From a virus: DNA of 64,000 bases. A program made the translations under genes and the position numbers. The DNA lies in the IMG/VR virus record IMGVR_UViG_3300029121_000001. The stretch is one strand, 5' to 3'. This document shows, in pieces, positions 7,069 through 51,371 of the stretch (positions are counted from its first letter, which is position 1; each line of letters starts with the position of its first letter). The notes under the pieces are model-generated. The model was not told where the DNA came from, ran no database searches, and saw nothing but the letters and a program-made list of their open reading frames with translations.

Positions 7069-9000
7069 TTACTTACTATTCTTCTTATTGGTGCGAATAG
7101 AGTAACGAACTTCACCCTCCTTATGAGGCTTAGTGTTATCAACAGAGACAGTAAGTTCATCAGCTGCTGCATTCGTGTTCTGCACACAGCTCATGATCTT
7201 GCTGGGGAACGGATAATTCACACGACTATCCGCGACCATGATAAACTTATCAGGATTGGTATAAGAGCTAATCCGGAAACGAATATTATCAAGGCTCTTG
7301 TTTCCGAGAACCTTGTAAATATTCTTGACCAATTTCACCCAATCATCATAAGTGATCTCAGGAAGATTGCTCATGTCCATTCTATCAGCAAACATGAATC
7401 CATTGTTAATGGCGATAATCTCAGGAGGAATCTGAGCATTGAGCATACGATTGTCTTCCTGAGTAATAGTACCAAGAATAAACTTAGTTACCATTGCCTG
7501 ATCATGCAAGCAGATGCTCGGTTCACGACGAATATCATGACCTTTGATCAGGGGCATGACCCGGATATCATCGCCATAGATCGTCTTATAATCTACGCCA
7601 ATGATCTTAAGCAAGATCCAATTGCCATGCTGATCAAGCAAGGCAGGATTATAGATTCCTGCTGCAATGACACCAGGATAATCGGAGCTACCATAACTCA
7701 CGACCAGACCGAAACTATTGATCAAATTGGTCAACCGTTCAATGCCAGGATAAGTTCTGGCAAAGAGCTCGTTGTTTCCAGCCTCAACAGCAGCAATCTG
7801 AGGAGGCTTATTGGAAACAGGCTGTGCAGGAGCAGTAGGAGTTGCAGGAGCAGGCTGATTAGCCTCAGGAGCAGGAGTTACAGGAATAGCTTTTGCGACC
7901 CCATTGCCAGCAAGAACATCATCAAAAGTGATGTTCTGCTCATTGGGATCGGTGCCAGGCAAAGTAATTGCCTGAACCATCTGGACCTGACCTTCCGGAG
8001 GATCAACAACATGGAGATCAGTCACAGGAGTTACATTTCCTGCACTCTGAGGAGGCTGAGAAATTGCAGACGACACACGACGAATGGCTGCTGCGATAGG
8101 TTGTTCATTCGGACGAACAATCTCAGGAGCTCCATTATTGTTGTTTGCAATCGGCGCTGCTCCTTTAGGATTCTGTTGAGGAACAACAGCTTCCATGGGC
8201 TTTGCTGCATTCGCATCCAAGCTAATATCCTCTTCGGAATTATTAGCAGATGGCGTTACAATTGGCGTATCATCTGTAGGAGCTCGATAATCTACAGGGT
8301 CATCAAAATGACCTGCCTCAACATAGCCATTCTTTTCTGCGATGAACATATTGCGGACTTCTTCAGGAATGTCAGTCTGCATATCCACAGCCTCATTCCA
8401 GGCCTTGATCTTCTTATGGTCAATCCCATTGGCTTCATTATAGAAGTCGGGGATAAATTCCATAATAAGATCAAAATCCATGGTCCCGGTAATGAAGCCA
8501 TGGACGATGCCAAACGCAATAACTTTATAAACGTTGGCATTGCCTTGTTCATAAAGTTTCTTCGCGTTGCGGATGGTCTCCTTCTCATCTTCAGCGGATC
8601 CAATGTTGGTAAGAATAACTCTACCCAACACATTGAAATATCTATGAATAGTCATCATAGAGATTTCAGGTGCGCTATCATTGAAAGGAAGCTGGAACCA
8701 TCTATTTGCGATAGAGAATACGTGTCCATCAGCCGGAGTATACATGTTTGTGAATTGTCCCATCTCGAATTTGTCAATATAATTATTCACATAACGAGAT
8801 GCTTGATCACAAACATCCTGATCAATGCAGCTATCTGCAAGGAGCGTACTGAAGCAAATTTTGTGTTCAGGATCTTTCCCATACTCAGGGCACAGTCTGT
8901 CCATAGATTCCCAAAATTTTTCTTCATCGATAACGATACCGTATTTCTTGTTGAATTCAACAATGTCTTTAGGAATTTCACGATTTCTAGTTGCGGCCAT
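7069..9000 (-). CDS. Abundant-looking orphan protein, 643 aa, two globular halves joined by a P/A/Q/N-rich linker
   Basis: AAAGGAG SD. Locally raised GC and codon bias strong enough to leave the whole antisense frame open. Own terminator. Confidence 0.8.
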   Translation of the reverse strand: MAATRNREIPKDIVEFNKKYGIVIDEEKFWESMDRLCPEYGKDPEHKICFSTLLADSCIDQDVCDQASRYVNNYIDKFEMGQFTNMYTPADGHVFSIANRWFQLPFNDSAPEISMMTIHRYFNVLGRVILTNIGSAEDEKETIRNAKKLYEQGNANVYKVIAFGIVHGFITGTMDFDLIMEFIPDFYNEANGIDHKKIKAWNEAVDMQTDIPEEVRNMFIAEKNGYVEAGHFDDPVDYRAPTDDTPIVTPSANNSEEDISLDANAAKPMEAVVPQQNPKGAAPIANNNNGAPEIVRPNEQPIAAAIRRVSSAISQPPQSAGNVTPVTDLHVVDPPEGQVQMVQAITLPGTDPNEQNITFDDVLAGNGVAKAIPVTPAPEANQPAPATPTAPAQPVSNKPPQIAAVEAGNNELFARTYPGIERLTNLINSFGLVVSYGSSDYPGVIAAGIYNPALLDQHGNWILLKIIGVDYKTIYGDDIRVMPLIKGHDIRREPSICLHDQAMVTKFILGTITQEDNRMLNAQIPPEIIAINNGFMFADRMDMSNLPEITYDDWVKLVKNIYKVLGNKSLDNIRFRISSYTNPDKFIMVADSRVNYPFPSKIMSCVQNTNAAADELTVSVDNTKPHKEGEVRYSIRTNKKNSK

Positions 9001-26513: not shown

Positions 26514-26774
26514 TTAAATATAAAGTATTTTAGAAGTGACTTTTCCTGAATATTCAGCTTGTAGACGTATCAATATAAAATAGCCTTTATTATCTTCATT
26601 ACGCTCCATATAAATGCCTGATATTGTAAATGGATGACTAGTATTATCACTAACATCTTTTATATATATTATTTGTAATGGAATTTTTGGATCTGGTACA
26701 TAATATATTGCTAACGTGCCACGCTGTACAGTAGTAATTGCGTCATCTATTTTAATTTTAGTAGAAGCGTCATT
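26514..26774 (-). CDS. Start-less cassette ORF 1 (NDASTKIK...KILYI), 86 codons
   Basis: Open frame beginning 2 codons after the TAA of cassette 2, in the same frame. Box variant TAATGACGCTTCTAC. First in-frame ATG is about codon 57. No SD. Confidence 0.5.
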   Translation of the reverse strand, partial: NDASTKIKIDDAITTVQRGTLAIYYVPDPKIPLQIIYIKDVSDNTSHPFTISGIYMERNEDNKGYFILIRLQAEYSGKVTSKILYI

Positions 26775-26780: not shown

Positions 26781-27014
26781 TTAAATATATATTATATTTG
26801 CATAGGTGCTATATTTATCAAAATAAAATGTATCATTACCACTACCATGTGCATATGCAGCATATAGTTTATTATTATATTTATATATACCAGAATATTC
26901 TTCTCTAATTGATGGTGAATTTAATAAATCGTATCCTATTATTATACCTGCTAGTACATATCCTTTGGTTGCATCGATATATATTCCATCAAGCCTTTTT
27001 ATAGAAGCGTCAGA
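26781..27014 (-). CDS. Start-less cassette ORF 2 (SDASIKRL...ANIIYI), 77 codons
   Basis: Opens directly after TAA (27017-27015). No in-frame ATG, GTG or TTG anywhere and no SD. Closest paralogue is 44915-45139. Confidence 0.55.
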   Translation of the reverse strand, partial: SDASIKRLDGIYIDATKGYVLAGIIIGYDLLNSPSIREEYSGIYKYNNKLYAAYAHGSGNDTFYFDKYSTYANIIYI

Positions 27015-42347: not shown

Positions 42348-44822
42348 TTATTTCTTTTCGCCTTCGTTATTAGGCTGATTATTATTCTCTTGATTCTGAT
42401 TATTCTCTTGATTACCGTTATTTTTCTTATTATTCTTTTCCTGTTTCTTTTCGTTCTTACTAGAAGCTTTAATAACAGTTTTAAATAGATTCATATTCTG
42501 TTTATATGCTGCAAAAGCATTAGTACACTTAGCAGTTATAACAGAAATGTTTGTAGAGAAACAACGATGAATAGCATCATCAAGAGTTTTAGAATTATTA
42601 TCATCAACCTTACCAGTAGCCTTTTCAGCATCTTCAGTGGTCTTTTCACCAGGAGTAATCTCTGCTTCATTGAAAGGAAGTTCATCATCAATCTGAGAAA
42701 GTCCTAGACATTCAGCAAGATTAAATCCAGAATTAAAATCACTGATAGCAGACTCATGCCCAGTCTGTTGTTGGGCAGGTTTCTGAGATCCGGTTTCACT
42801 CTTAGGTTCACCAGAACTAGGTTGTTGTTGAGTTGCTTGATTATTGGTATCATTCGAAGGATTATTTCTCATCTTTACCATATAATCATTATAATTTCTA
42901 GAAGCATTCTTATAATCTTCATCAATTTGCTTATAATCATCATTAATAGTTCCAAGAGCATCAGATGAATATCCCTTATAAACAAATTCATCAACGTATT
43001 TAAATGCTTCATCAAAATTATATCTAATATTTGCTAGAGTCTTACCTTTACTATTATCAATATTAATATAAGCTCCTTGGTAAGCTTTATTAACTCTAGT
43101 AAGGAAAGAGTCATCCTTATCTTTTCCAGCAGTAGCTTTATAATCAGTTCCGGTAGTGCCATGAATTTTATTAAGTGCTGCATTCTCCATAGCATCATCA
43201 GACTGAAGATCTTTGCTAACAGGATCAAACTTAATGACTGTAGAATTCTTGAACAAATTAAGATTATAACAATACCATTGGTTAACTTGAGTATCCATGA
43301 TATTGATATTCTTTAGTTTATTCTTATTATCTTCCCAGAACTGTTTGTCTCCACCCTTGCCAAGAACTTCATCGATTCGCTGCTTAAATCTACCAATAGC
43401 CTCTCCAAGTCTAGAAATAATTTGTTTAAGCCAATTAAGGATACCAAATTTATTTTTAGACTTAGAATTATTTTCTTTATTATTATTCGAATCATTATTA
43501 TTTGAATTATTACTATCTTTATTTTGATTTTCTTGCGGCTTAGATTCTTCTGCTTTTCCATCACTTTTGCTACTGGAATCTTCTGGTCTTCCGATAGTAG
43601 GCTCATTAGATTGAGCGTCCCATTCTTCTCTAGTTAATTCTGTCAAGTATTGTTCAAGCATGCACTCAAACTTATACTCATTATAAACGTTCTCAATGAG
43701 CATATTAGTCATTGTGTTGTCATGCTGAATATCATAGAATTCTTTAACAGAATCTTCACCATTGAAGGAAATAGAATCAGCAGGAGTATCTTGAGCAACA
43801 TCTTCAACTGGCTTATCAGTATTTTCAGATAGATCACAGTATTTAAGAATTAATTCATGAGCAGTATTAATTACTGTAATAGAATCTTTTCCATATCCAT
43901 AAATATCAATTAATCTATGAATCTTTCTACTAGCAACAATATTAGCTACACAAATTACATTCTGAATTACATTAATCAAAGATGCTGACCGATGTCCATA
44001 TATATTTTTATATTCATTAGAACCATTATTCTCTAGATTATTAATATACTCATCTATTTTATGAAGGCAATTATTAAAGCTGGATTCTACATCAGCTTTC
44101 ATATAATCTAGAAGCTCAATAACTGTATCAATAGAATTAAGATTAGAATATGCTCTGATATAAGTATCTAGAAGAAATCTCTGAGTATATTTACGATCCG
44201 GCATTAATGTATCTGCAATTCCAACTGCAAAAGACATAGTGTTAGCGGCCTTAGAAGGATCATAAAAACTACCAAGCATATTATAAAGAATATTATCTTT
44301 AAAAGAATTGAAATCAGTATTCTCAGTAGTGATTCCCTTAATAGCAGAAATATTGGGGAACATCTTGTCTAGAATAACATTTCCAGCAGTAATTTCTCCA
44401 ATATTATGAATTTGTAGCTCTGCAGGATCTGCGATTACAATCATTCTCTTAATAAATTCAATTCTCTGTGATATAGAATATTTATATTCAATAGGATTTT
44501 TCTCTCTTGTCTTACAAGATTCGATAGTTTCCTTAGCACCAGAAATTTCTTCTAGTAGAGAATTCTTTACTGTAGAAATAGCTTCTTTAGCAGTTGTAAG
44601 AGAATCATAAATCTGGCTAAATTGAATATCTCCAGGCTCTTCAGATTCATTAATAGAAACAATATTTTGAACAGATTCTCTAAGAGTATTATTAAACTTA
44701 AGAGTATTTTGAAGAGTAAATTCTTCTACATTAACGCAATTATTGTAGTTAATATAATCAGGAATATGGCAATGAGAATTATATCCTTCAAGAAAGAATT
44801 TATAATTCATATTTAGTCCCAT
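42348..44822 (-). CDS. Large hypothetical protein, 824 aa, with N/Q/K/S-rich low-complexity inserts
   Basis: Long ORF with an AAAGGGG SD. C-terminal NNGNQENNQNQENNNQPNNEGEKK. Confidence 0.75.
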   Translation of the reverse strand: MGLNMNYKFFLEGYNSHCHIPDYINYNNCVNVEEFTLQNTLKFNNTLRESVQNIVSINESEEPGDIQFSQIYDSLTTAKEAISTVKNSLLEEISGAKETIESCKTREKNPIEYKYSISQRIEFIKRMIVIADPAELQIHNIGEITAGNVILDKMFPNISAIKGITTENTDFNSFKDNILYNMLGSFYDPSKAANTMSFAVGIADTLMPDRKYTQRFLLDTYIRAYSNLNSIDTVIELLDYMKADVESSFNNCLHKIDEYINNLENNGSNEYKNIYGHRSASLINVIQNVICVANIVASRKIHRLIDIYGYGKDSITVINTAHELILKYCDLSENTDKPVEDVAQDTPADSISFNGEDSVKEFYDIQHDNTMTNMLIENVYNEYKFECMLEQYLTELTREEWDAQSNEPTIGRPEDSSSKSDGKAEESKPQENQNKDSNNSNNNDSNNNKENNSKSKNKFGILNWLKQIISRLGEAIGRFKQRIDEVLGKGGDKQFWEDNKNKLKNINIMDTQVNQWYCYNLNLFKNSTVIKFDPVSKDLQSDDAMENAALNKIHGTTGTDYKATAGKDKDDSFLTRVNKAYQGAYINIDNSKGKTLANIRYNFDEAFKYVDEFVYKGYSSDALGTINDDYKQIDEDYKNASRNYNDYMVKMRNNPSNDTNNQATQQQPSSGEPKSETGSQKPAQQQTGHESAISDFNSGFNLAECLGLSQIDDELPFNEAEITPGEKTTEDAEKATGKVDDNNSKTLDDAIHRCFSTNISVITAKCTNAFAAYKQNMNLFKTVIKASSKNEKKQEKNNKKNNGNQENNQNQENNNQPNNEGEKK

Positions 44823-44914: not shown

Positions 44915-45139
44915 TTAAATATATATTATATTAGCATAACTACTATAGTTTCTAAAATCGAACCCACTGCTCCAGTCAAATCCATATGTAGCATATACTT
45001 TACCGTTATATTGATATGCTGTAAAATATTCAGATTGTCCTGGACTATCTAATAAATCACATCCTATCATTGTGCCATTTAATGGATATCCACTAGTAGT
45101 AATATAAATATTATTAAGCTTTTTTATAGAAGCGTCAGA
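44915..45139 (-). CDS. Start-less cassette ORF 3 (SDASIKKL...ANIIYI), 74 codons
   Basis: Opens directly after TAA (45142-45140). First in-frame ATG is at codon 23. No SD. Paralogue of 26781-27014. Confidence 0.55.
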   Translation of the reverse strand, partial: SDASIKKLNNIYITTSGYPLNGTMIGCDLLDSPGQSEYFTAYQYNGKVYATYGFDWSSGFDFRNYSSYANIIYI

Positions 45140-45637: not shown

Positions 45638-45922
45638 GTGAAAATATACACTTTAAATAAATCTGACGCTTCTATTAAGATAAAGAATAAAATTGTAAAT
45701 GTAAAAGATTATTATACATTTAGAGATGGTATCATATTAAATACCTGCCTTATGACGTATTCTAATGTAAGTTATTCATATAGGCCATTTATTCAAGTGC
45801 GTTACGATAATAATGATAATAGTTATAGTATTAGAATACAATGTATCATTAATAGTGATATTGATGGATATAATTTCGATAATAGTGTGAATGATGGAAG
45901 TATTATAATATATTATATATAA
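45638..45922 (+). CDS. Cassette ORF 4 (MKIYTLNK-SDASIKIK...SIIIYYI), the only plus-strand copy
   Basis: The frame opens right after TAA with a GTG 8 codons before the box. No SD. Ends in IIYYI like 51132-51371. Confidence 0.55.
   Translation: MKIYTLNKSDASIKIKNKIVNVKDYYTFRDGIILNTCLMTYSNVSYSYRPFIQVRYDNNDNSYSIRIQCIINSDIDGYNFDNSVNDGSIIIYYI
45658..45676 (+). repeat. Cassette box, copy 4 (TAAATCTGACGCTTCTATT)
   Basis: Inverted relative to all the other copies. Confidence 0.85.
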
Positions 45923-45926
45923 AATA

Positions 45927-45955
45927 ATCCAGTAGGAATTAAATTCCTACTGGAT
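45927..45955. terminator. Bidirectional hairpin terminator
   Basis: atccagtaggaatt-a-aattcctactggat between cassette 4 and the radical SAM gene. Confidence 0.75.
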
Positions 45956-45962
45956 ATTATTG

Positions 45963-47297
45963 TTACTTATTAAATGCTTCTTTTTCTAGATTAAATAAAT
46001 AATCAGCTTCTTCTTTACCAAGAATATCTACTACTTCATTATATGGAAGATTGATCTTTGTTGGATCTTTATCTCCTAACTCAATACATCTTCTATTATA
46101 ATAGTAATAGTATCCTAATACTCTACCTTTATGAGCATAACAAATTCCAGTATATCTTTTATTCGCAGTTCCATATAATTCATAATTATATGCAGAACAC
46201 CAACCACAATTCAAAGATACAGGACAATCAATACACTTCTTTGGAGATTGAGAAGTGAATGTTATAGAATCAAGTTCTTTCTTGATATTCTTACTACTCT
46301 CTGATTTAAATAATCCATTAAAGCAATCACCAATAATAATTTTATTAGCTTTCTCTTTTCCAATAGATATAGGAGCATATCTAATACAAGGATAAGCATT
46401 GCCATCTGGGTCAAATGCCATCATATGACCGGTACCACCACAGAAATTCTTATCATCATGCTGTAGATTGACTGCTCCTCCGAGAGTAGAATCAAGTAAA
46501 GCTACAATAGCATTACTTTTATTTTGAATTAAATAATTAGAAAGCTTCTTTAATTCAAAATAAATATTCTTTGCATCACTAATAGAATATTCTGGTTCAT
46601 ATGCAAAATTGCAATTAACAAGGTTACATCCATTCTCAATCATCATCTTAATAGATGGAGTAATATATTGAACAGAATTGGGAACAAATGTCATTTTACT
46701 ATTCGCTGAACCATAAATATTTTTTACATCAAGAAATGCTTTATATGCTTTTTCAAATGATCCTTCTCCATATCTATCGATTCTATATTTATCATGAAGA
46801 TCTTGAATACCATCAATAGATACAGTAATTGATAAGAATTCTTTATACTTATGCACAAAATGTTGTACATCTTTATCAAACCAATTCTGACCATTTGTAG
46901 CAAAAGCAATTCTAGTAAATTGAGCAATAGGAATATTCCTTAAATAGCATTGATGAAAGAAATAATCACATATTTCTTCTACTAATTTTGCTTCTAGCAT
47001 TGGTTCTCCACCAATAAAATCAAGAATAATACTTTTTGTATTCTTATTGATAAAATCAGTGTCATTATCCTCATACATATCTAGAATTCTATCAATACAT
47101 TTTTTACCAATATAGAGAGACATAGATCCATCAGACTTATGATGTTCATAACAATAAGAGCAACGAAGATTACACTGATTTGTTACCTGAAATGTAATTT
47201 CTCGTGCAGCCTCCATTTTTCGATCTTCTCCATTTGAAAAAATCTCTCGAATATACTCACCATAATTGTCTCTAGATCGACTATTAATACTTACCAT
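45963..47297 (-). CDS. Radical SAM enzyme with C-terminal SPASM/twitch-type auxiliary cluster domain (anSME / peptide-maturase-like)
   Basis: CNLRCSYC (CX3CX2C), GGEPML, then CGGTGHMMAFDPDGNAYPC, CIDCPVSLNCGWC and GICYAH. The start overlaps the upstream stop (ATGGTAA). Confidence 0.85.
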   Translation of the reverse strand: MVSINSRSRDNYGEYIREIFSNGEDRKMEAAREITFQVTNQCNLRCSYCYEHHKSDGSMSLYIGKKCIDRILDMYEDNDTDFINKNTKSIILDFIGGEPMLEAKLVEEICDYFFHQCYLRNIPIAQFTRIAFATNGQNWFDKDVQHFVHKYKEFLSITVSIDGIQDLHDKYRIDRYGEGSFEKAYKAFLDVKNIYGSANSKMTFVPNSVQYITPSIKMMIENGCNLVNCNFAYEPEYSISDAKNIYFELKKLSNYLIQNKSNAIVALLDSTLGGAVNLQHDDKNFCGGTGHMMAFDPDGNAYPCIRYAPISIGKEKANKIIIGDCFNGLFKSESSKNIKKELDSITFTSQSPKKCIDCPVSLNCGWCSAYNYELYGTANKRYTGICYAHKGRVLGYYYYYNRRCIELGDKDPTKINLPYNEVVDILGKEEADYLFNLEKEAFNK

Positions 47298-47584
47298 GTT
47301 AATTCTACCTCATTATTATCGAAATCAAATTCATATTCTATAGAAGAAGGAACTTTTCCGATTATAGAGGCAATAAGAGTATTTACGTTTACCATAAATT
47401 CAATATAGGCATTCTGATAATCTACTCTATATTTATCTATCATAGCTGCAGTTTCTGCGGATTTATTTTCTGCAAATTCACGAGCCAATACACAAATGAA
47501 ATTTTTATAACTCATCATAATATAATGAAGTCTTTCAATTGTAATAGATTGCTCTTTATCAATATTAACTTTCTTTTTCTGCAT
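47291..47584 (-). CDS. Hypothetical helical protein, 97 aa, translationally coupled to the radical SAM gene
   Basis: The track start is a TTG. The ATG at 47584 is more likely. Overlaps both neighbours. Confidence 0.6.
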   Translation of the reverse strand: MQKKKVNIDKEQSITIERLHYIMMSYKNFICVLAREFAENKSAETAAMIDKYRVDYQNAYIEFMVNVNTLIASIIGKVPSSIEYEFDFDNNEVELTW

Positions 47585-48185
47585 TATTATTAGTCTCCAT
47601 TTCAATCAGATGATAAGCTGTAGTTTCAGTTTTAAGAGATTCATATCGATCTCTTATATAAAAAATTTTATCGAGAATCCTGATAAGAAGACTATTGTCT
47701 CTATCCTTTTCTTCAATCATCTTATTAGCAATTGAACGTAGCACAGTATAAAGACAATATACATGAAAATTAGAATTTGTACTCATACTTAGAAAAATGT
47801 TTATTTTATTATTATCTATAGGAAATCCATCAATAACAGTAAAATTGCATTTATCTGAATATGTCTTTAAAGTAATTGTATATATAGTAAGAAGTATTTC
47901 TTCATCTGTAGCATCATAATTACATGCTGAAAAAATACTAGATACTACAGAACTTACATATTTTGCATAATCATGTATATTAATAGAAAAGTCAGAATGA
48001 CAAAGTGTGCAAAAATAATCTATATAACAAAATTCGGGTTCTTTAGATATATTATCAAAAATAATAAGCATATCTTTAGTAATTGGATCCATTGAAAGAA
48101 ATCTATTAAGTAAGAAATTCTTTTTAAAGAATTTATCATTTTTAGAATAATTTATAGTAAAGGTATCATTAGTAATATCTATCAT
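47565..48185 (-). CDS. Hypothetical protein, 206 aa
   Basis: GGAGG SD. Same operon. Confidence 0.7.
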   Translation of the reverse strand: MIDITNDTFTINYSKNDKFFKKNFLLNRFLSMDPITKDMLIIFDNISKEPEFCYIDYFCTLCHSDFSINIHDYAKYVSSVVSSIFSACNYDATDEEILLTIYTITLKTYSDKCNFTVIDGFPIDNNKINIFLSMSTNSNFHVYCLYTVLRSIANKMIEEKDRDNSLLIRILDKIFYIRDRYESLKTETTAYHLIEMETNNNAEKES

Positions 48186-48198
48186 AAAATATCCTCCA

Positions 48199-48756
48199 TT
48201 ACATTAACCAAAATCCACATCCAGAGCAAGATTCACAAGTATGAGCACATCCAGATCCACACCCTTCGCATCCATCACACCCTCCACTACATCCTCCACT
48301 ACATCCAGAGCAAGTAGTGTTACATCCTCCACTACAATTTGTTTTACAATTTCCAGAACATCCTTTACAACCACCATAGCAACCAGTATTGCACAATCCA
48401 CTACAAGATGCTTTACATCCAGTAGAGGTCGCATCTTTAGCAATTTTAGAAAGATTGCCTACTGATGTAGTAGCATTTGTAAGTACACTAGCAATAACAT
48501 TAGCATTTTTATCAGGAGTTGTATTACTACCAGTAACAGCATCCAAAGGTTTAGTAATCTTTTGAATGTGTTCTAAATTGATTTTAATATCTTTACCTTG
48601 AGCTGGTGTAGTAGTATAATCATATGAAGTTCCATTATAGGATTTCATACTTCCAACACTTGCTGAATTTGATCTACGTGTAATCTCCGATTTTACGAGT
48701 TTCTTAAGTGCAGTAAAATCACTAGCATTAATTAATTCGCTTTTTTTAATACCCAT
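48199..48756 (-). CDS. Protein with extreme Cys/Gly/Ser-rich C-terminal tail, 185 aa
   Basis: The last 74 residues contain 19 Cys spaced CX2C/CX3C (GCKASCSGLCNTGCYGGCKGCSGNC...CSGGCSGGCDGCEGCGSGCAHTCESCSGCGFWLM). AAGAGGG SD. Confidence 0.75.
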   Translation of the reverse strand: MGIKKSELINASDFTALKKLVKSEITRRSNSASVGSMKSYNGTSYDYTTTPAQGKDIKINLEHIQKITKPLDAVTGSNTTPDKNANVIASVLTNATTSVGNLSKIAKDATSTGCKASCSGLCNTGCYGGCKGCSGNCKTNCSGGCNTTCSGCSGGCSGGCDGCEGCGSGCAHTCESCSGCGFWLM

Positions 48757-48760
48757 AATA

Positions 48761-49270
48761 TTACCCTCTTACACGAATGCGTACTCGACGAATATCTGTA
48801 TTAAGATCTTCATCGACTGCATATCCTACAATTTGTGTATTTTCTACTATTTCATCATGAAGTTTTGCTTTACCAACTCCAGAAATATCAGAAACTATAA
48901 TAGTATCTCCACGATGAATTTCTCCAATACACTTACAGTATACACGGCCACATAGTGATACAGGAATATATTTCTTAATATTCTTAGAAATATAATCATC
49001 ACTATTATCATATTGATCACCACCAATAATCATAGCATATTCATCAGAATGAACACCTGCAATAATACTACTTTTATTAGTAGCTTTAATATAGCTTTCT
49101 TTATCAGAAGATAGATCAAGAGCAATAATATCTCCAGGTTCTGTATATTCTCCTCTAGGGAAGAATTCTGCATAGTCATTATATACAGCACCATAACATT
49201 TACTAAATTTTGCTACACCATTTTTATCTACATAATAACTAGCACTACCAAAATTAATAGTACCCGTCAT
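48761..49270 (-). CDS. Hypothetical protein, 169 aa, first gene of the radical SAM operon
   Basis: GGTGGA SD. NDYAEFF...PGD...GRVYCKCIGEIHRGDTI recalls modules seen in phage fibre-associated proteins (unverified). Confidence 0.65.
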   Translation of the reverse strand: MTGTINFGSASYYVDKNGVAKFSKCYGAVYNDYAEFFPRGEYTEPGDIIALDLSSDKESYIKATNKSSIIAGVHSDEYAMIIGGDQYDNSDDYISKNIKKYIPVSLCGRVYCKCIGEIHRGDTIIVSDISGVGKAKLHDEIVENTQIVGYAVDEDLNTDIRRVRIRVRG

Positions 49271-49282
49271 TGTTCCACCAGA

Positions 49283-49310
49283 CTTAAGAAGATAAGCGTC
49301 AAATTATTAT
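49283..49310 (-). repeat. Cassette-box variant in the 5' leader of the radical SAM operon (ATAATAATTTGACGCTTATCTTCTTAAG)
   Basis: Shares ATAAT, TGACGCTT and CT..TAAG with the cassette boxes. Here it is followed by an SD and ATG 12 nt downstream of the box end. Confidence 0.6.
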
Positions 49311-49338
49311 AATTTTAATATATTTCAAAAAAAAGAAA

Positions 49339-49366
49339 AACCAATAGAGAGAAATCTCTATTGGTT
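49339..49366 (-). terminator. Hairpin terminator closing cassette 5
   Basis: aaccaatagaga-gaaa-tctctattggtt. An inverted paralogue of 51390-51417 with a compensatory pair change. Confidence 0.75.
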
Positions 49367-49371
49367 TATAA

Positions 49372-49587
49372 TTAAATATAATACACTATACAAGATATAT
49401 TATCATCCGTCCAAGTTGATGTATTACTACCTAAAGTAAAATGAATACAATATATCCAAGATGATTTAGATATAAATGCAATATAATTATAATAGTTTTC
49501 TTTAATTGCAACAGATATTGGAATTCCTAATGTAAACTTTTGTCCTGATTTAAAATCTATACTCTTAATTTTAGTAGAAGCGTCAGA
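49372..49587 (-). CDS. Start-less cassette ORF 5 (SDASTKIKSIDF...CIVYYI), 71 codons
   Basis: Opens directly after TGA (49590-49588). The only in-frame ATG/GTG/TTG is a GTG 4 codons before the stop. No SD. Confidence 0.55.
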   Translation of the reverse strand, partial: SDASTKIKSIDFKSGQKFTLGIPISVAIKENYYNYIAFISKSSWIYCIHFTLGSNTSTWTDDNISCIVYYI

Positions 49588-49646: not shown

Positions 49647-50390
49647 TCAAATATGTTCTTTTATAATATCAATAATTGCCTTAATCAATCTTCTTTCATC
49701 GTGCTTTTCAATATTACTATTACTGCAAAAATCATTGAATTTTGTTCTAAAGTTTTCAATATCAGAAGAAGTCATATAAATATGAGATAATTGTGTCATA
49801 CTTAAAAGATTATAGTCTGGTTTTCCGAATAGATCATTATAAAGTTTGTCAACCAAGTATTCTTTTCTTTTTTGATCAATACATCTTATCCATACATCTC
49901 CAAGAGTGATAGAATCACTATTATTGACATTGATATATAATTCATATATATTTTCTAAAAGTCTAATGGTAATGACTACTTTATTATCAGAATCTAATTT
50001 TTTACTAATAAATTCCAAAGATTCAATCATTCTATTTGTTGTATTAATATTATGACAATTAATAAAATATCTTATCATATCATCATTATTTAATTTAATT
50101 TTACGCATCCTTCTACCAGATAATACTTTGTTACTGTTACAAAATGCAATAGATTTGAACTGCTCATATTTATCTTTAGCACATTCATAACTTTCAAAAT
50201 TATATCTACTAATTTTAACCTTTTTACCTCCATTAATATCGAATATAATATTTCTAATTGTAATAACATATGATAGATAATCATTATAACTATAACTTTC
50301 AATCATAACACATGTTTTACTATCAGAAGAATATCCCAATAAACTAACCATAATATCATCTTTTATAGTAGTAATAAATCTTTCTCTCAT
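49647..50390 (-). CDS. Hypothetical protein, 247 aa
   Basis: ORF with an AAAGGAG SD. Confidence 0.7.
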   Translation of the reverse strand: MRERFITTIKDDIMVSLLGYSSDSKTCVMIESYSYNDYLSYVITIRNIIFDINGGKKVKISRYNFESYECAKDKYEQFKSIAFCNSNKVLSGRRMRKIKLNNDDMIRYFINCHNINTTNRMIESLEFISKKLDSDNKVVITIRLLENIYELYINVNNSDSITLGDVWIRCIDQKRKEYLVDKLYNDLFGKPDYNLLSMTQLSHIYMTSSDIENFRTKFNDFCSNSNIEKHDERRLIKAIIDIIKEHI

Positions 50391-51131: not shown

Positions 51132-51371
51132 TTATATATAATAAATTATTGCTGTACCTGATACACAGTTATCAACATCATGTGAATTATATCCAGTATT
51201 TGCACATATATAATATAAATTTTCAGTATAATATTTATTATTCATTGTTATACTACACACAGGATAATTAGTACCATTATATATTAATACAGCAGATATT
51301 GGCGTTCCTGGTACAGAAAAATAACTTGACACTTTTACTGTTATATTTTTAATCTTAGTAGAAGCGTCAGA
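51132..51371 (-). CDS. Start-less cassette ORF 6 (SDASTKIKNITVKV...GTAIIYYI), 79 codons
   Basis: Opens directly after TGA TAA (51377-51372). The track catches only the part from an internal GTG (51332). No SD. Confidence 0.55.
   Translation of the reverse strand, partial: SDASTKIKNITVKVSSYFSVPGTPISAVLIYNGTNYPVCSITMNNKYYTENLYYICANTGYNSHDVDNCVSGTAIIYYI

Follow-up and report, generated by a model that had tools for sequence, protein, structure and literature searches.

Bacterial CXXX-repeat systems, which have so far been known only as annotation models, combine a radical S-adenosylmethionine (rSAM) enzyme of family TIGR04115 with Cys-repeat target proteins (TIGR04114 or TIGR04117), a SPASM-only maturase (TIGR04119) and a small partner protein (TIGR04116). 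We describe here a related five-gene operon in IMG/VR virus record IMGVR_UViG_3300029121_000001, of which a stretch of 64,000 nucleotides (nt), hereafter the window, was analysed; the window is part of a jumbo phage genome of about 250-260 kb. The operon encodes, in order, a tail-fibre-type domain (gene 1), a protein with a Cys-repeat tail (gene 2), two accessory proteins of 206 and 97 amino acids (aa; genes 3 and 4) and an rSAM/SPASM enzyme (gene 5). We consider it probable that this operon is a phage-adapted CXXX-repeat radical SAM protein-maturation system, carried within a horizontally mobile distal tail-fibre cassette. In full-text literature searches we came across no paper that describes a CXXX-repeat/rSAM tail module in phages.

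The canonical bacterial layout is seen in locus L002, which encodes a CXXX-repeat protein (TIGR04117/TIGR04114) with a twin-arginine translocation (Tat) signal, an rSAM enzyme that is a bona fide member of TIGR04115 (630 bits), a SPASM-only TIGR04119 protein and a 91-aa TIGR04116 protein. This 6.8-kb sequence is filed as 'Bacteriophage sp.' (MT837480), and TatA/TatC-like genes follow its CXXX-repeat system; it looks bacterial, not viral, and the closest relatives of its enzyme are mostly Bacteroidales loci. The phage module resembles such systems in having an rSAM enzyme for which TIGR04115 is the best-matching family over its full length, a target with CX3C repeats in a Gly/Ser matrix, a homologous helical partner of about 90 aa with a C-terminal FDF...EV hairpin, a gene cluster on one strand, and anaerobic hosts. 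By sequence comparison, it appears to share three of the four parts of the bacterial system. We class it as a phage-specific variant and not a plain member because its enzyme, which falls in a separate clade, scores below the curated cut-off, TIGR04119 is missing, and both target architecture and gene order differ. The phage target begins with a folded N-terminal domain (N-domain) of 111 aa, whereas most bacterial targets in the loci fetched carry an RR/Tat motif. The phage order is target, helical protein, small partner, rSAM, while the bacterial one is target or targets, rSAM, TIGR04119, small partner. The phage cassette also differs in containing a non-homologous helical protein of about 200 aa, and in being tied to a tail-fibre domain. 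The initial annotation of this DNA could not place the module in a known family; we find that it fits the TIGR04114-04119 set, itself defined in silico.

The PapB/freyrasin-type and SCIFF maturases are also rSAM/SPASM enzymes with two auxiliary clusters, and form several thioethers from repeated Cys residues per substrate. They act on short peptides that carry CX3D/E motifs or six Cys in 45 residues, whereas the phage targets are of the 185-aa type with 19-36 Cys, and unlike the phage module these systems have no tail-fibre context. PapB is reported to form thioethers (PMC12373016).

A second phage-borne arrangement, of weaker likeness, is found in jumbo phages of the SPN3US type. SPN3US itself (L003, JN641803) encodes two radical SAM proteins, gp163 and gp164, with two Cys-repeat ORFs (open reading frames) upstream. 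The best family match of the larger enzyme, gp163, is TIGR04115 at 125 bits, and it shares 27% identity with the enzyme of the window. The Cys-repeat ORFs, of 130 aa (2142-2534) and 134 aa (2545-2949), have GCSGxC repeats and lie upstream of gp165; the first overlaps no annotated coding sequence, and the second is annotated in a different frame as gp166 (2618-2953). The deposited annotation would therefore make proteomic searches miss both. The locus adjoins gp168, according to the SPN3US authors a tail protein related to a phiKZ baseplate-periphery protein (PMC5105663). It differs from the operon of the window in its second rSAM gene and in targets with short, unrelated N-terminal regions, and no member of the 97-aa or 206-aa families was detected in it. 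SPN3US is nonetheless a genetically tractable model jumbo phage that holds a distant analogue of the system. The rSAM genes of Campylobacter phages were also considered as the same module and were rejected, as that of CP21 has no nearby Cys-repeat gene and lies in a replication-gene context.

The enzyme and its predicted substrate

Gene 5 encodes a CX3CX2C motif (C42, C46 and C49), a GGEP motif at residues 96-99 and a SPASM domain with seven conserved Cys at 286, 304, 355, 358, 364, 367 and 386, which bears out the initial description of CX3CX2C, GGE and a multi-Cys SPASM-like C-terminus. These motifs and the seven C-terminal Cys are invariant in an alignment of phage and bacterial enzymes that comprises the window, L001, L005-L007, SPN3US and L002. 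The top NCBIfam match is TIGR04115 ('radical SAM peptide maturase, CXXX-repeat target family'), at 292.5 bits (E 5.8e-87) and over profile positions 1-359 of 359, with a lead of 155 bits over the next family. Lower scores were obtained with the PapB-type ranthipeptide maturases (NF047865, 137.3 bits, cut-off 340), the SCIFF maturases (TIGR03974, 83.1 bits, cut-off 425) and the anaerobic sulfatase maturases (anSME; TIGR03942, 55.8 bits, cut-off 349). In PHROGs the enzyme falls in phrog_1802, and it is the only long ORF of the window that bears CX3CX2C. An identity as a housekeeping rSAM enzyme, which the initial annotation had named as one outcome that would undo its proposal, can be ruled out, as nearly all of the top 25 NCBIfam matches are peptide maturases and TIGR04115 is by far the best of them. 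On homology, we therefore regard the product of gene 5 as a peptide maturase of the radical SAM/SPASM class that is complete in length and stands closest to TIGR04115.

As PapB and the SCIFF maturases are its nearest characterised relatives by score and form thioethers, we infer thioether formation for the phage enzyme as well. Some other chemistry on the Cys tail, either anSME-like formylglycine formation or undescribed links that join Cys to Cys or to the backbone, is very unlikely in our judgement. It would fit the weak similarity that the enzyme shows over its full length to many SPASM maturases, anSME among them (56 bits), and our literature searches returned nothing on the chemistry of TIGR04115; however, the closest characterised relatives are thioether formers.

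The substrate of this enzyme is predicted to be the C-terminal tail of the gene 2 protein. As initially annotated, the last 74 residues of this 185-aa protein contain 19 Cys at CX2C/CX3C spacing (26%, against a background of 1.35% in the long ORFs of the window), while residues 1-111 contain none. The spacings are solely CX3C (12) and CX2C (6), and the tail is the only Cys-rich stretch in the window. The gene 2 family comprises 270 protein clusters, whose tails have a median of 26 Cys with 78% CX3C and 20% CX2C spacing, and are composed of 27% Cys, 24% Gly, 19% Ser and 9% Thr; the first repeats, TGCKxSCSGLCxTGC, are almost invariant. Gene 2 matches PHROG 6085 at 1e-11 and TIGR04117 weakly (E 0.094). 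Its L001 ortholog exceeds the TIGR04114 cut-off (21.3 against 20 bits), and PF27846 (tSAM_targ_Cxxx_rpt) is recorded on some of its relatives.

The N-domain of gene 2 was modelled by AlphaFold2 (AF2) as three long helices with loops, at a predicted local distance difference test score (pLDDT) of 70-91, and the tail was given no fold. A search of BFVD with the domain matched two Cys-rich proteins of uncultured phages (E up to 0.001), apparently members of the same family. A filter-free phmmer search of 1.84 billion representatives yielded 113 proteins with the domain, and it was found in no cultured phage of the GenBank set. The domain is N-terminal throughout these proteins, which are short (47-324 aa) and include many fragments; the one long match was spurious, a repeat protein. 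All six that we examined end in Cys-repeat tails, some of them cut or frameshifted. The phage target has no RR (Tat) signal and carries this conserved helical domain at its N-terminus instead. We propose a docking or leader-like function for it.

Accessory proteins and distribution of the cassette

Gene 4 encodes a protein of 97 aa for which neither BLAST comparison with TIGR04116 nor the NCBIfam scan of the window protein itself gave a match to that family. Profile methods did reveal a relationship. A hidden Markov model (HMM) built from the phage members alone scored the TIGR04116 protein of L002 at 22 bits over its full length, and matched 47 of 66 bacterial TIGR04116-type proteins with E values of 1e-8 to 7e-3; these proteins had been identified by jackhmmer seeded with L002, and the database searched comprised 3,708 ORFs. 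In hhalign, the phage family aligned end to end with the bacterial TIGR04116 profile (97.2%, E 3.8e-11), and with the single L002 sequence at 92.8%. The curated TIGR04116 model was matched directly by 3 of 31 phage members and was the sole recurring family. In both families, two long helices lead into an FDF..EV hairpin at the C-terminus. Gene 4 is thus, as judged by profile similarity, a divergent and remote homolog of TIGR04116 (CXXX repeat peptide modification system protein); its own profile found nothing significant among PDB sequences.

The 206-aa protein of gene 3 is all-helical, and its family has a single near-invariant Cys. No relatives were detected outside the phage module, and its AF2 model, based on an alignment of three sequences, was unusable (pLDDT 46). 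The family has no SPASM Cys or motif and no conserved CxxC. A role as the equivalent of TIGR04119 was ruled out, given the missing SPASM Cys and an hhalign probability of 0.1%, as was an Erv/ALR-type sulfhydryl oxidase, given the lack of a conserved CxxC and non-significant matches to PDB sequences (E 0.3-1). More distant phages have an unrelated helical protein of 170-190 aa in the same position; no relationship was found between the 206-aa protein and the one in L005. On the jumbo contig L004, which is 96% identical to the window, the 206-aa and 97-aa genes form a single ORF of 296 aa (L004 7117-8007) through a 2-nt difference in an A-run, reading GC--AGAAAAAG against GCAAAAAAAAAG at window positions 47565-47605. 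A genuine fusion, slippage or an assembly error could each account for it, and in every case it ties the two proteins together. Since both are fused in L004, the 206-aa protein probably acts alongside the 97-aa protein. A homolog search with the fused protein returned two near-identical proteins only, and we therefore collected the accessory families by synteny.

Relatives of the enzyme are encoded on at least 488 IMG/VR contigs. We assembled a set of 89 loci, mostly on viral contigs and usually with the module in tail-fibre position, and the cassette (fibre C-terminal domain, Cys protein, helical protein, 97-aa protein and rSAM enzyme) recurs in about 60-85 of them. A member of the 97-aa family lies directly upstream of the rSAM gene in 82 loci, a Cys-repeat protein is present in 85 and a member of the 206-aa family in 60. 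In most cases the Cys-repeat gene lies upstream of that for the enzyme, in some just downstream. The carriers are gut phages from about 30 kb to about 260 kb. The initial annotation had held that the proposal would fail if the operon were not conserved in related phages, and the unit is in fact kept, with its gene order, in many of them.

At least 353 cellular relatives of the enzyme were found in a scan of one genome per species. The 80 that were listed come from gut, rumen and other anaerobic lineages, mostly Bacteroidales and Clostridia, with at most one or two possible exceptions; anaerobic hosts are compatible with oxygen-sensitive rSAM chemistry. In most of these 80 loci, genes for Cys-repeat proteins with RR signals lie upstream of the rSAM gene, and a TIGR04116-like gene lies downstream of it at a distance of about 1 kb. 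A target of the phage type was seen in nine, mostly in metagenome-assembled genomes of Bacillota, and in seven of those a gene of the 97-aa type lies just upstream of the rSAM gene. By BLAST score, all 79 viral loci have enzymes closer to that of the window and all 67 cellular-type loci have enzymes closer to that of L002, so that the subclade of the enzyme can be predicted from the target type in each of the 146 loci. Given this clean split by target type, we conclude that the phage enzymes form a clade of their own beside TIGR04115 proper.

This co-variation bears on whether the Cys tail is a substrate at all. It might instead be a metal, Fe-S or disulfide domain, of metallothionein-like or knottin-like type and not covalently cross-linked, with the enzyme acting on the fibre or another substrate, or serving as a cluster-handling chaperone. 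CX2C/CX3C sites at such density are typical of metal-binding sequences, the tail has no fold in AF2, and the initial annotation also raised the Fe-S or metal option. However, target and enzyme clade co-vary strictly and the Cys protein accompanies the enzyme almost throughout (85 of 89 loci), the curators of both NCBIfam and Pfam define such repeats as rSAM targets, and the operon has no other Cys-rich protein or obvious candidate substrate. We therefore regard a purely metal-binding or disulfide-bonded tail as distinctly unlikely. The earlier proposal of an rSAM/SPASM modifier coupled to a Cys-tailed substrate and a 97-aa partner is supported by the relationships to TIGR04115 and TIGR04116 and by conservation in phages.

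Two kinds of unusual locus were seen in the set. The contigs IMGVR_UViG_3300045988_138928 (L015/L052) and IMGVR_UViG_3300045988_156218 (L016/L053), of about 255-259 kb, each carry two differing copies of the whole module at opposite ends; the enzymes are 58% and 56% identical to that of the window, and the copies would be adjacent if the genome were circular or permuted. Loci L066-L072 (IMG/VR contigs of 20-179 kb, at about 7100-8290) have one in-frame stop in the rSAM ORF (…SSTV*LGDYNG…) and a Cys-repeat gene downstream, which suggests stop-codon recoding, or an error shared by all.

Association with tail fibres and possible role

Gene 1 was treated in the initial annotation as an anonymous member of the operon, and this needs revision, since it encodes a C-terminal domain of tail fibres that starts inside the 'SGGTMTG' motif. 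The protein begins MTGTINFGS, at the M of that motif, and the leader, read in frame with gene 1 after a stop, gives *FDAYLLKSGGT, a remnant of the tail-fibre motif 'DxxYLxxSGGTMTG'. Together, judged from their sequences, the leader remnant and the start of gene 1 are the classic tail-fibre junction motif. In a jackhmmer search, the domain of about 168 aa was found directly upstream of the Cys gene in 61 of the 89 loci. Most of its distinct matches are the C-terminal 170 aa or so of proteins of 278-862 aa, starting at the junction motif; the remainder include stand-alone versions and cut fragments. The longer proteins are called tail fibres by PHROGs and Pfam (Phage_tail_fib, collagen repeats). 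The gene 1 protein of the window has no Pfam match, and its profile found nothing significant among PDB sequences. Many homologs at 58-77% identity have precomputed matches to PF11962 (Peptidase_G2, intramolecular chaperone (IMC) autoproteolytic domain), and three fibre orthologs with the domain have sub-threshold matches to it (16-22 bits, cut-off 25). By these similarities, gene 1 is probably a C-terminal, Peptidase_G2-like tail-fibre domain, with putative autoproteolysis. Stand-alone versions of 164-169 aa recur on contigs of 257-276 kb, and we therefore believe that the truncated form in the window is not accidental.

Of 17 aligned orthologs, all except one have a fibre C-terminal domain with 47-73% identity to gene 1, and the N-terminal parts of the fibres differ; the distal fibre domain and the four genes downstream thus appear to move as one cassette. 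The module follows the fibre gene at 0-5 nt or overlaps it. On P2/Mu-type phage or prophage contigs, it comes after gpW/gp25, Baseplate_J, Tail_P2_I or Mu gp48, and tail-fibre genes, and lysis genes lie closely downstream in two of the three such contexts inspected. A 30-kb gut phage contig (L001) has the same five genes in the same order, flanked by what look like baseplate and tail-fibre genes from their ORF translations, one of them with the fibre junction motif.

Exchangeable receptor-binding tips travel with helper genes in other phages, as in T4 gp37/gp38, lambda stf/tfa and Mu S/U, where the C-terminal part of the fibre and the next genes downstream likewise move jointly between unrelated phages. 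Since the synteny of the module and its co-transfer with the fibre C-terminal domain match this pattern, we suggest a functional tie to the tail fibre. To our knowledge, the T4, lambda and Mu helpers are chaperones or adhesins without enzymatic maturation, and no rSAM or Cys-repeat protein occurs with them.

On the model that we favour, a CXXX-repeat maturation system within a mobile fibre cassette, the following would occur late in infection of an anaerobic host. The 97-aa protein would bind the gene 2 N-domain or the invariant first repeats of the tail, probably joined in target binding by the 206-aa helical protein, and together these accessory proteins would present the Cys-repeat tail to the rSAM enzyme. 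The enzyme, using a 5'-deoxyadenosyl radical and its auxiliary SPASM clusters, would form many intramolecular cross-links from Cys sulfur to carbon, that is, thioethers of the sactionine or ranthionine type. The product would be a compact domain, insensitive to redox conditions and resistant to proteases, that forms in the cytoplasm with no oxidative folding, and the matured gene 2 protein would then work with the tail fibre as a distal tip, an adhesin or a fibre-associated element.

We advance a more specific form of this model tentatively, as a possibility that we rate somewhat below even. In it, the phage enzyme would turn a tail-fibre-associated virion protein into a 'Cys ladder' multiply cross-linked by thioethers, with the variable repeat tail as an exchangeable distal tip. 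Chemistry of the kind seen in peptides that are ribosomally synthesised and then modified after translation (RiPPs) would here act on a structural or receptor-binding protein, as an oxygen-independent substitute for stabilising disulfides in phages of anaerobes. If the tail is both cross-linked and virion-borne, it would stand for a new form of post-translational maturation in phage structural proteins and a new class of hyper-cross-linked protein domain, and would offer a testable way into the chemistry of all TIGR04115 enzymes, those of bacteria included.

Several points weigh against these proposals. The score of the enzyme lies below the TIGR04115 cut-off of 350 bits, and the TIGR04119 gene present in the bacterial system is absent from the operon and from the phage loci. 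Our literature search found no biochemical characterisation of any member of the TIGR04115 system, and because of this the thioether chemistry has been extrapolated from the much lower-scoring PapB and SCIFF relatives; PapB-type acceptors are scarce in the tails, with Asp and Glu together at about 5% of residues across the family. A structure search with the AF2 model of the gene 2 N-domain found no fold match in the PDB, and among the 113 representative proteins the domain is never fused to a fibre. Synteny is what suggests that the gene 2 protein is part of the virion. In the window, a fibre shaft is missing from gene 1 and most of the genes nearby lack annotation; two upstream ORFs match 'virion structural protein' PHROGs. 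Finally, cargo genes too are often found in the slot between tail-fibre and lysis genes.

This last point bears on a further explanation, in which the operon is a RiPP-like cargo locus. The 111-aa N-domain would be a long leader of the NHLP/Nif11 type, and the Cys-rich product, cleaved or not, would be freed at lysis to act on bacteria or on the host as a bacteriocin-like, signalling or exclusion factor and not as part of the virion. By definition the enzyme family consists of peptide maturases, a conserved N-domain followed by a variable repeat tail resembles a leader-core precursor, and the bacterial counterparts are exported via Tat signals; the separation of the N-domain from fibre proteins and the position of lysis genes right after the module in several loci would also be expected. 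However, no gene for a protease, a transporter or immunity lies beside the module in any locus inspected, and the junction of domain and tail shows no conserved cleavage motif. The module is, moreover, tightly coupled to the fibre gene and is transferred together with the fibre C-terminal domain between phages of unrelated backbone. We consider a cargo function unlikely on this evidence, and retain a fibre-associated maturation system as the preferred reading.

The operon and its surroundings

The five ORFs, of 169, 185, 206, 97 and 444 aa, are co-oriented, tightly packed or overlapping as initially described, and the unit (45927-49367, minus strand) lies between two hairpin terminators, both G+C-rich and each followed by a T-run (Table 1). 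Spacings in gene order are 4 nt, 13 nt, an overlap, and a second overlap, ATGGTAA, in which the stop of gene 4 overlaps the start of gene 5, again in agreement with the initial annotation. A Shine-Dalgarno (SD)-like sequence precedes every gene, including a GGTGGA in the leader 5 nt ahead of the gene 1 ATG. An alternative TTG start at 47605 would give gene 4 a length of 104 aa. Terminator-like sites are frequent in this 8.5-kb region, with 16 observed against 1.4 expected.

Table 1. Positions in the window of the operon, its boundaries and nearby features.
Feature	Position	Strand	Description
Hairpin terminator	49338-49367	-	13-bp stem, 4-nt loop, then T-run; closes the upstream small cassette and is the 5' boundary of the unit
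Leader	49271-49337	-	Promoter-like TATAAT, then invariant core TGACGCTT common to six small cassettes
Gene 1, 169 aa	48761-49270	-	Putative stand-alone Peptidase_G2-like C-terminal domain of tail-fibre proteins (intramolecular-chaperone type), from homology to fibre C-termini
Gene 2, whole ORF, 185 aa	48199-48756	-	
Gene 2, N-domain (residues 1-111)	48424-48756	-	Conserved, Cys-free, helical
Gene 2, CXXX-repeat tail (residues 112-185 and stop codon)	48199-48423	-	19 Cys in a Gly/Ser/Thr matrix
Gene 3, 206 aa	47565-48185	-	All-helical accessory protein; family collected by synteny
Gene 4, 97 aa	47291-47584	-	Probable divergent TIGR04116 homolog; ATG at 47584, stop at 47291
Gene 5, 444 aa	45963-47297	-	Predicted radical SAM/SPASM peptide maturase; phage-type sister group of TIGR04115
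Bidirectional hairpin terminator	45927-45955	.	Shared with the plus-strand cassette 45638-45922
Small 'start-less' cassettes	44915-45139 (-), 45638-45922 (+), 49375-49587 (-), 51132-51371 (-), 26755-26774 (-), 26995-27014 (-)		Core TGACGCTT
247-aa ORF	49647-50390	-	Between two cassettes
824-aa ORF	42348-44822	-	Just downstream of the unit

The small cassettes around the operon each consist of a terminator hairpin with T-run, (T)ATAAT, the core element, an ORF of 65-90 codons that often ends in IIYYI, and a terminator. The 20-nt core has seven matches against none expected, and, as the leader of the operon itself carries it too, is probably a shared promoter or 5' leader. Only the closest relative has conserved versions of the cassette peptides, with 63-66% aa identity as compared with 90-96% for the flanking DNA. 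No evidence was found for them as substrates or as fibre tips: they have no CXXX repeats, the one feature of a substrate that was looked for, are confined to that relative and never form fibre ends in the other loci.

Two further ORFs lie close by. The 247-aa ORF between two cassettes has no PHROG match and no counterpart in L004, where about 180 bp stand in place of about 900 bp; it looks like an insertion. The 824-aa ORF just downstream of the unit, also without a PHROG match, contains long low-complexity stretches rich in Asn, Ser, Lys and Gln.

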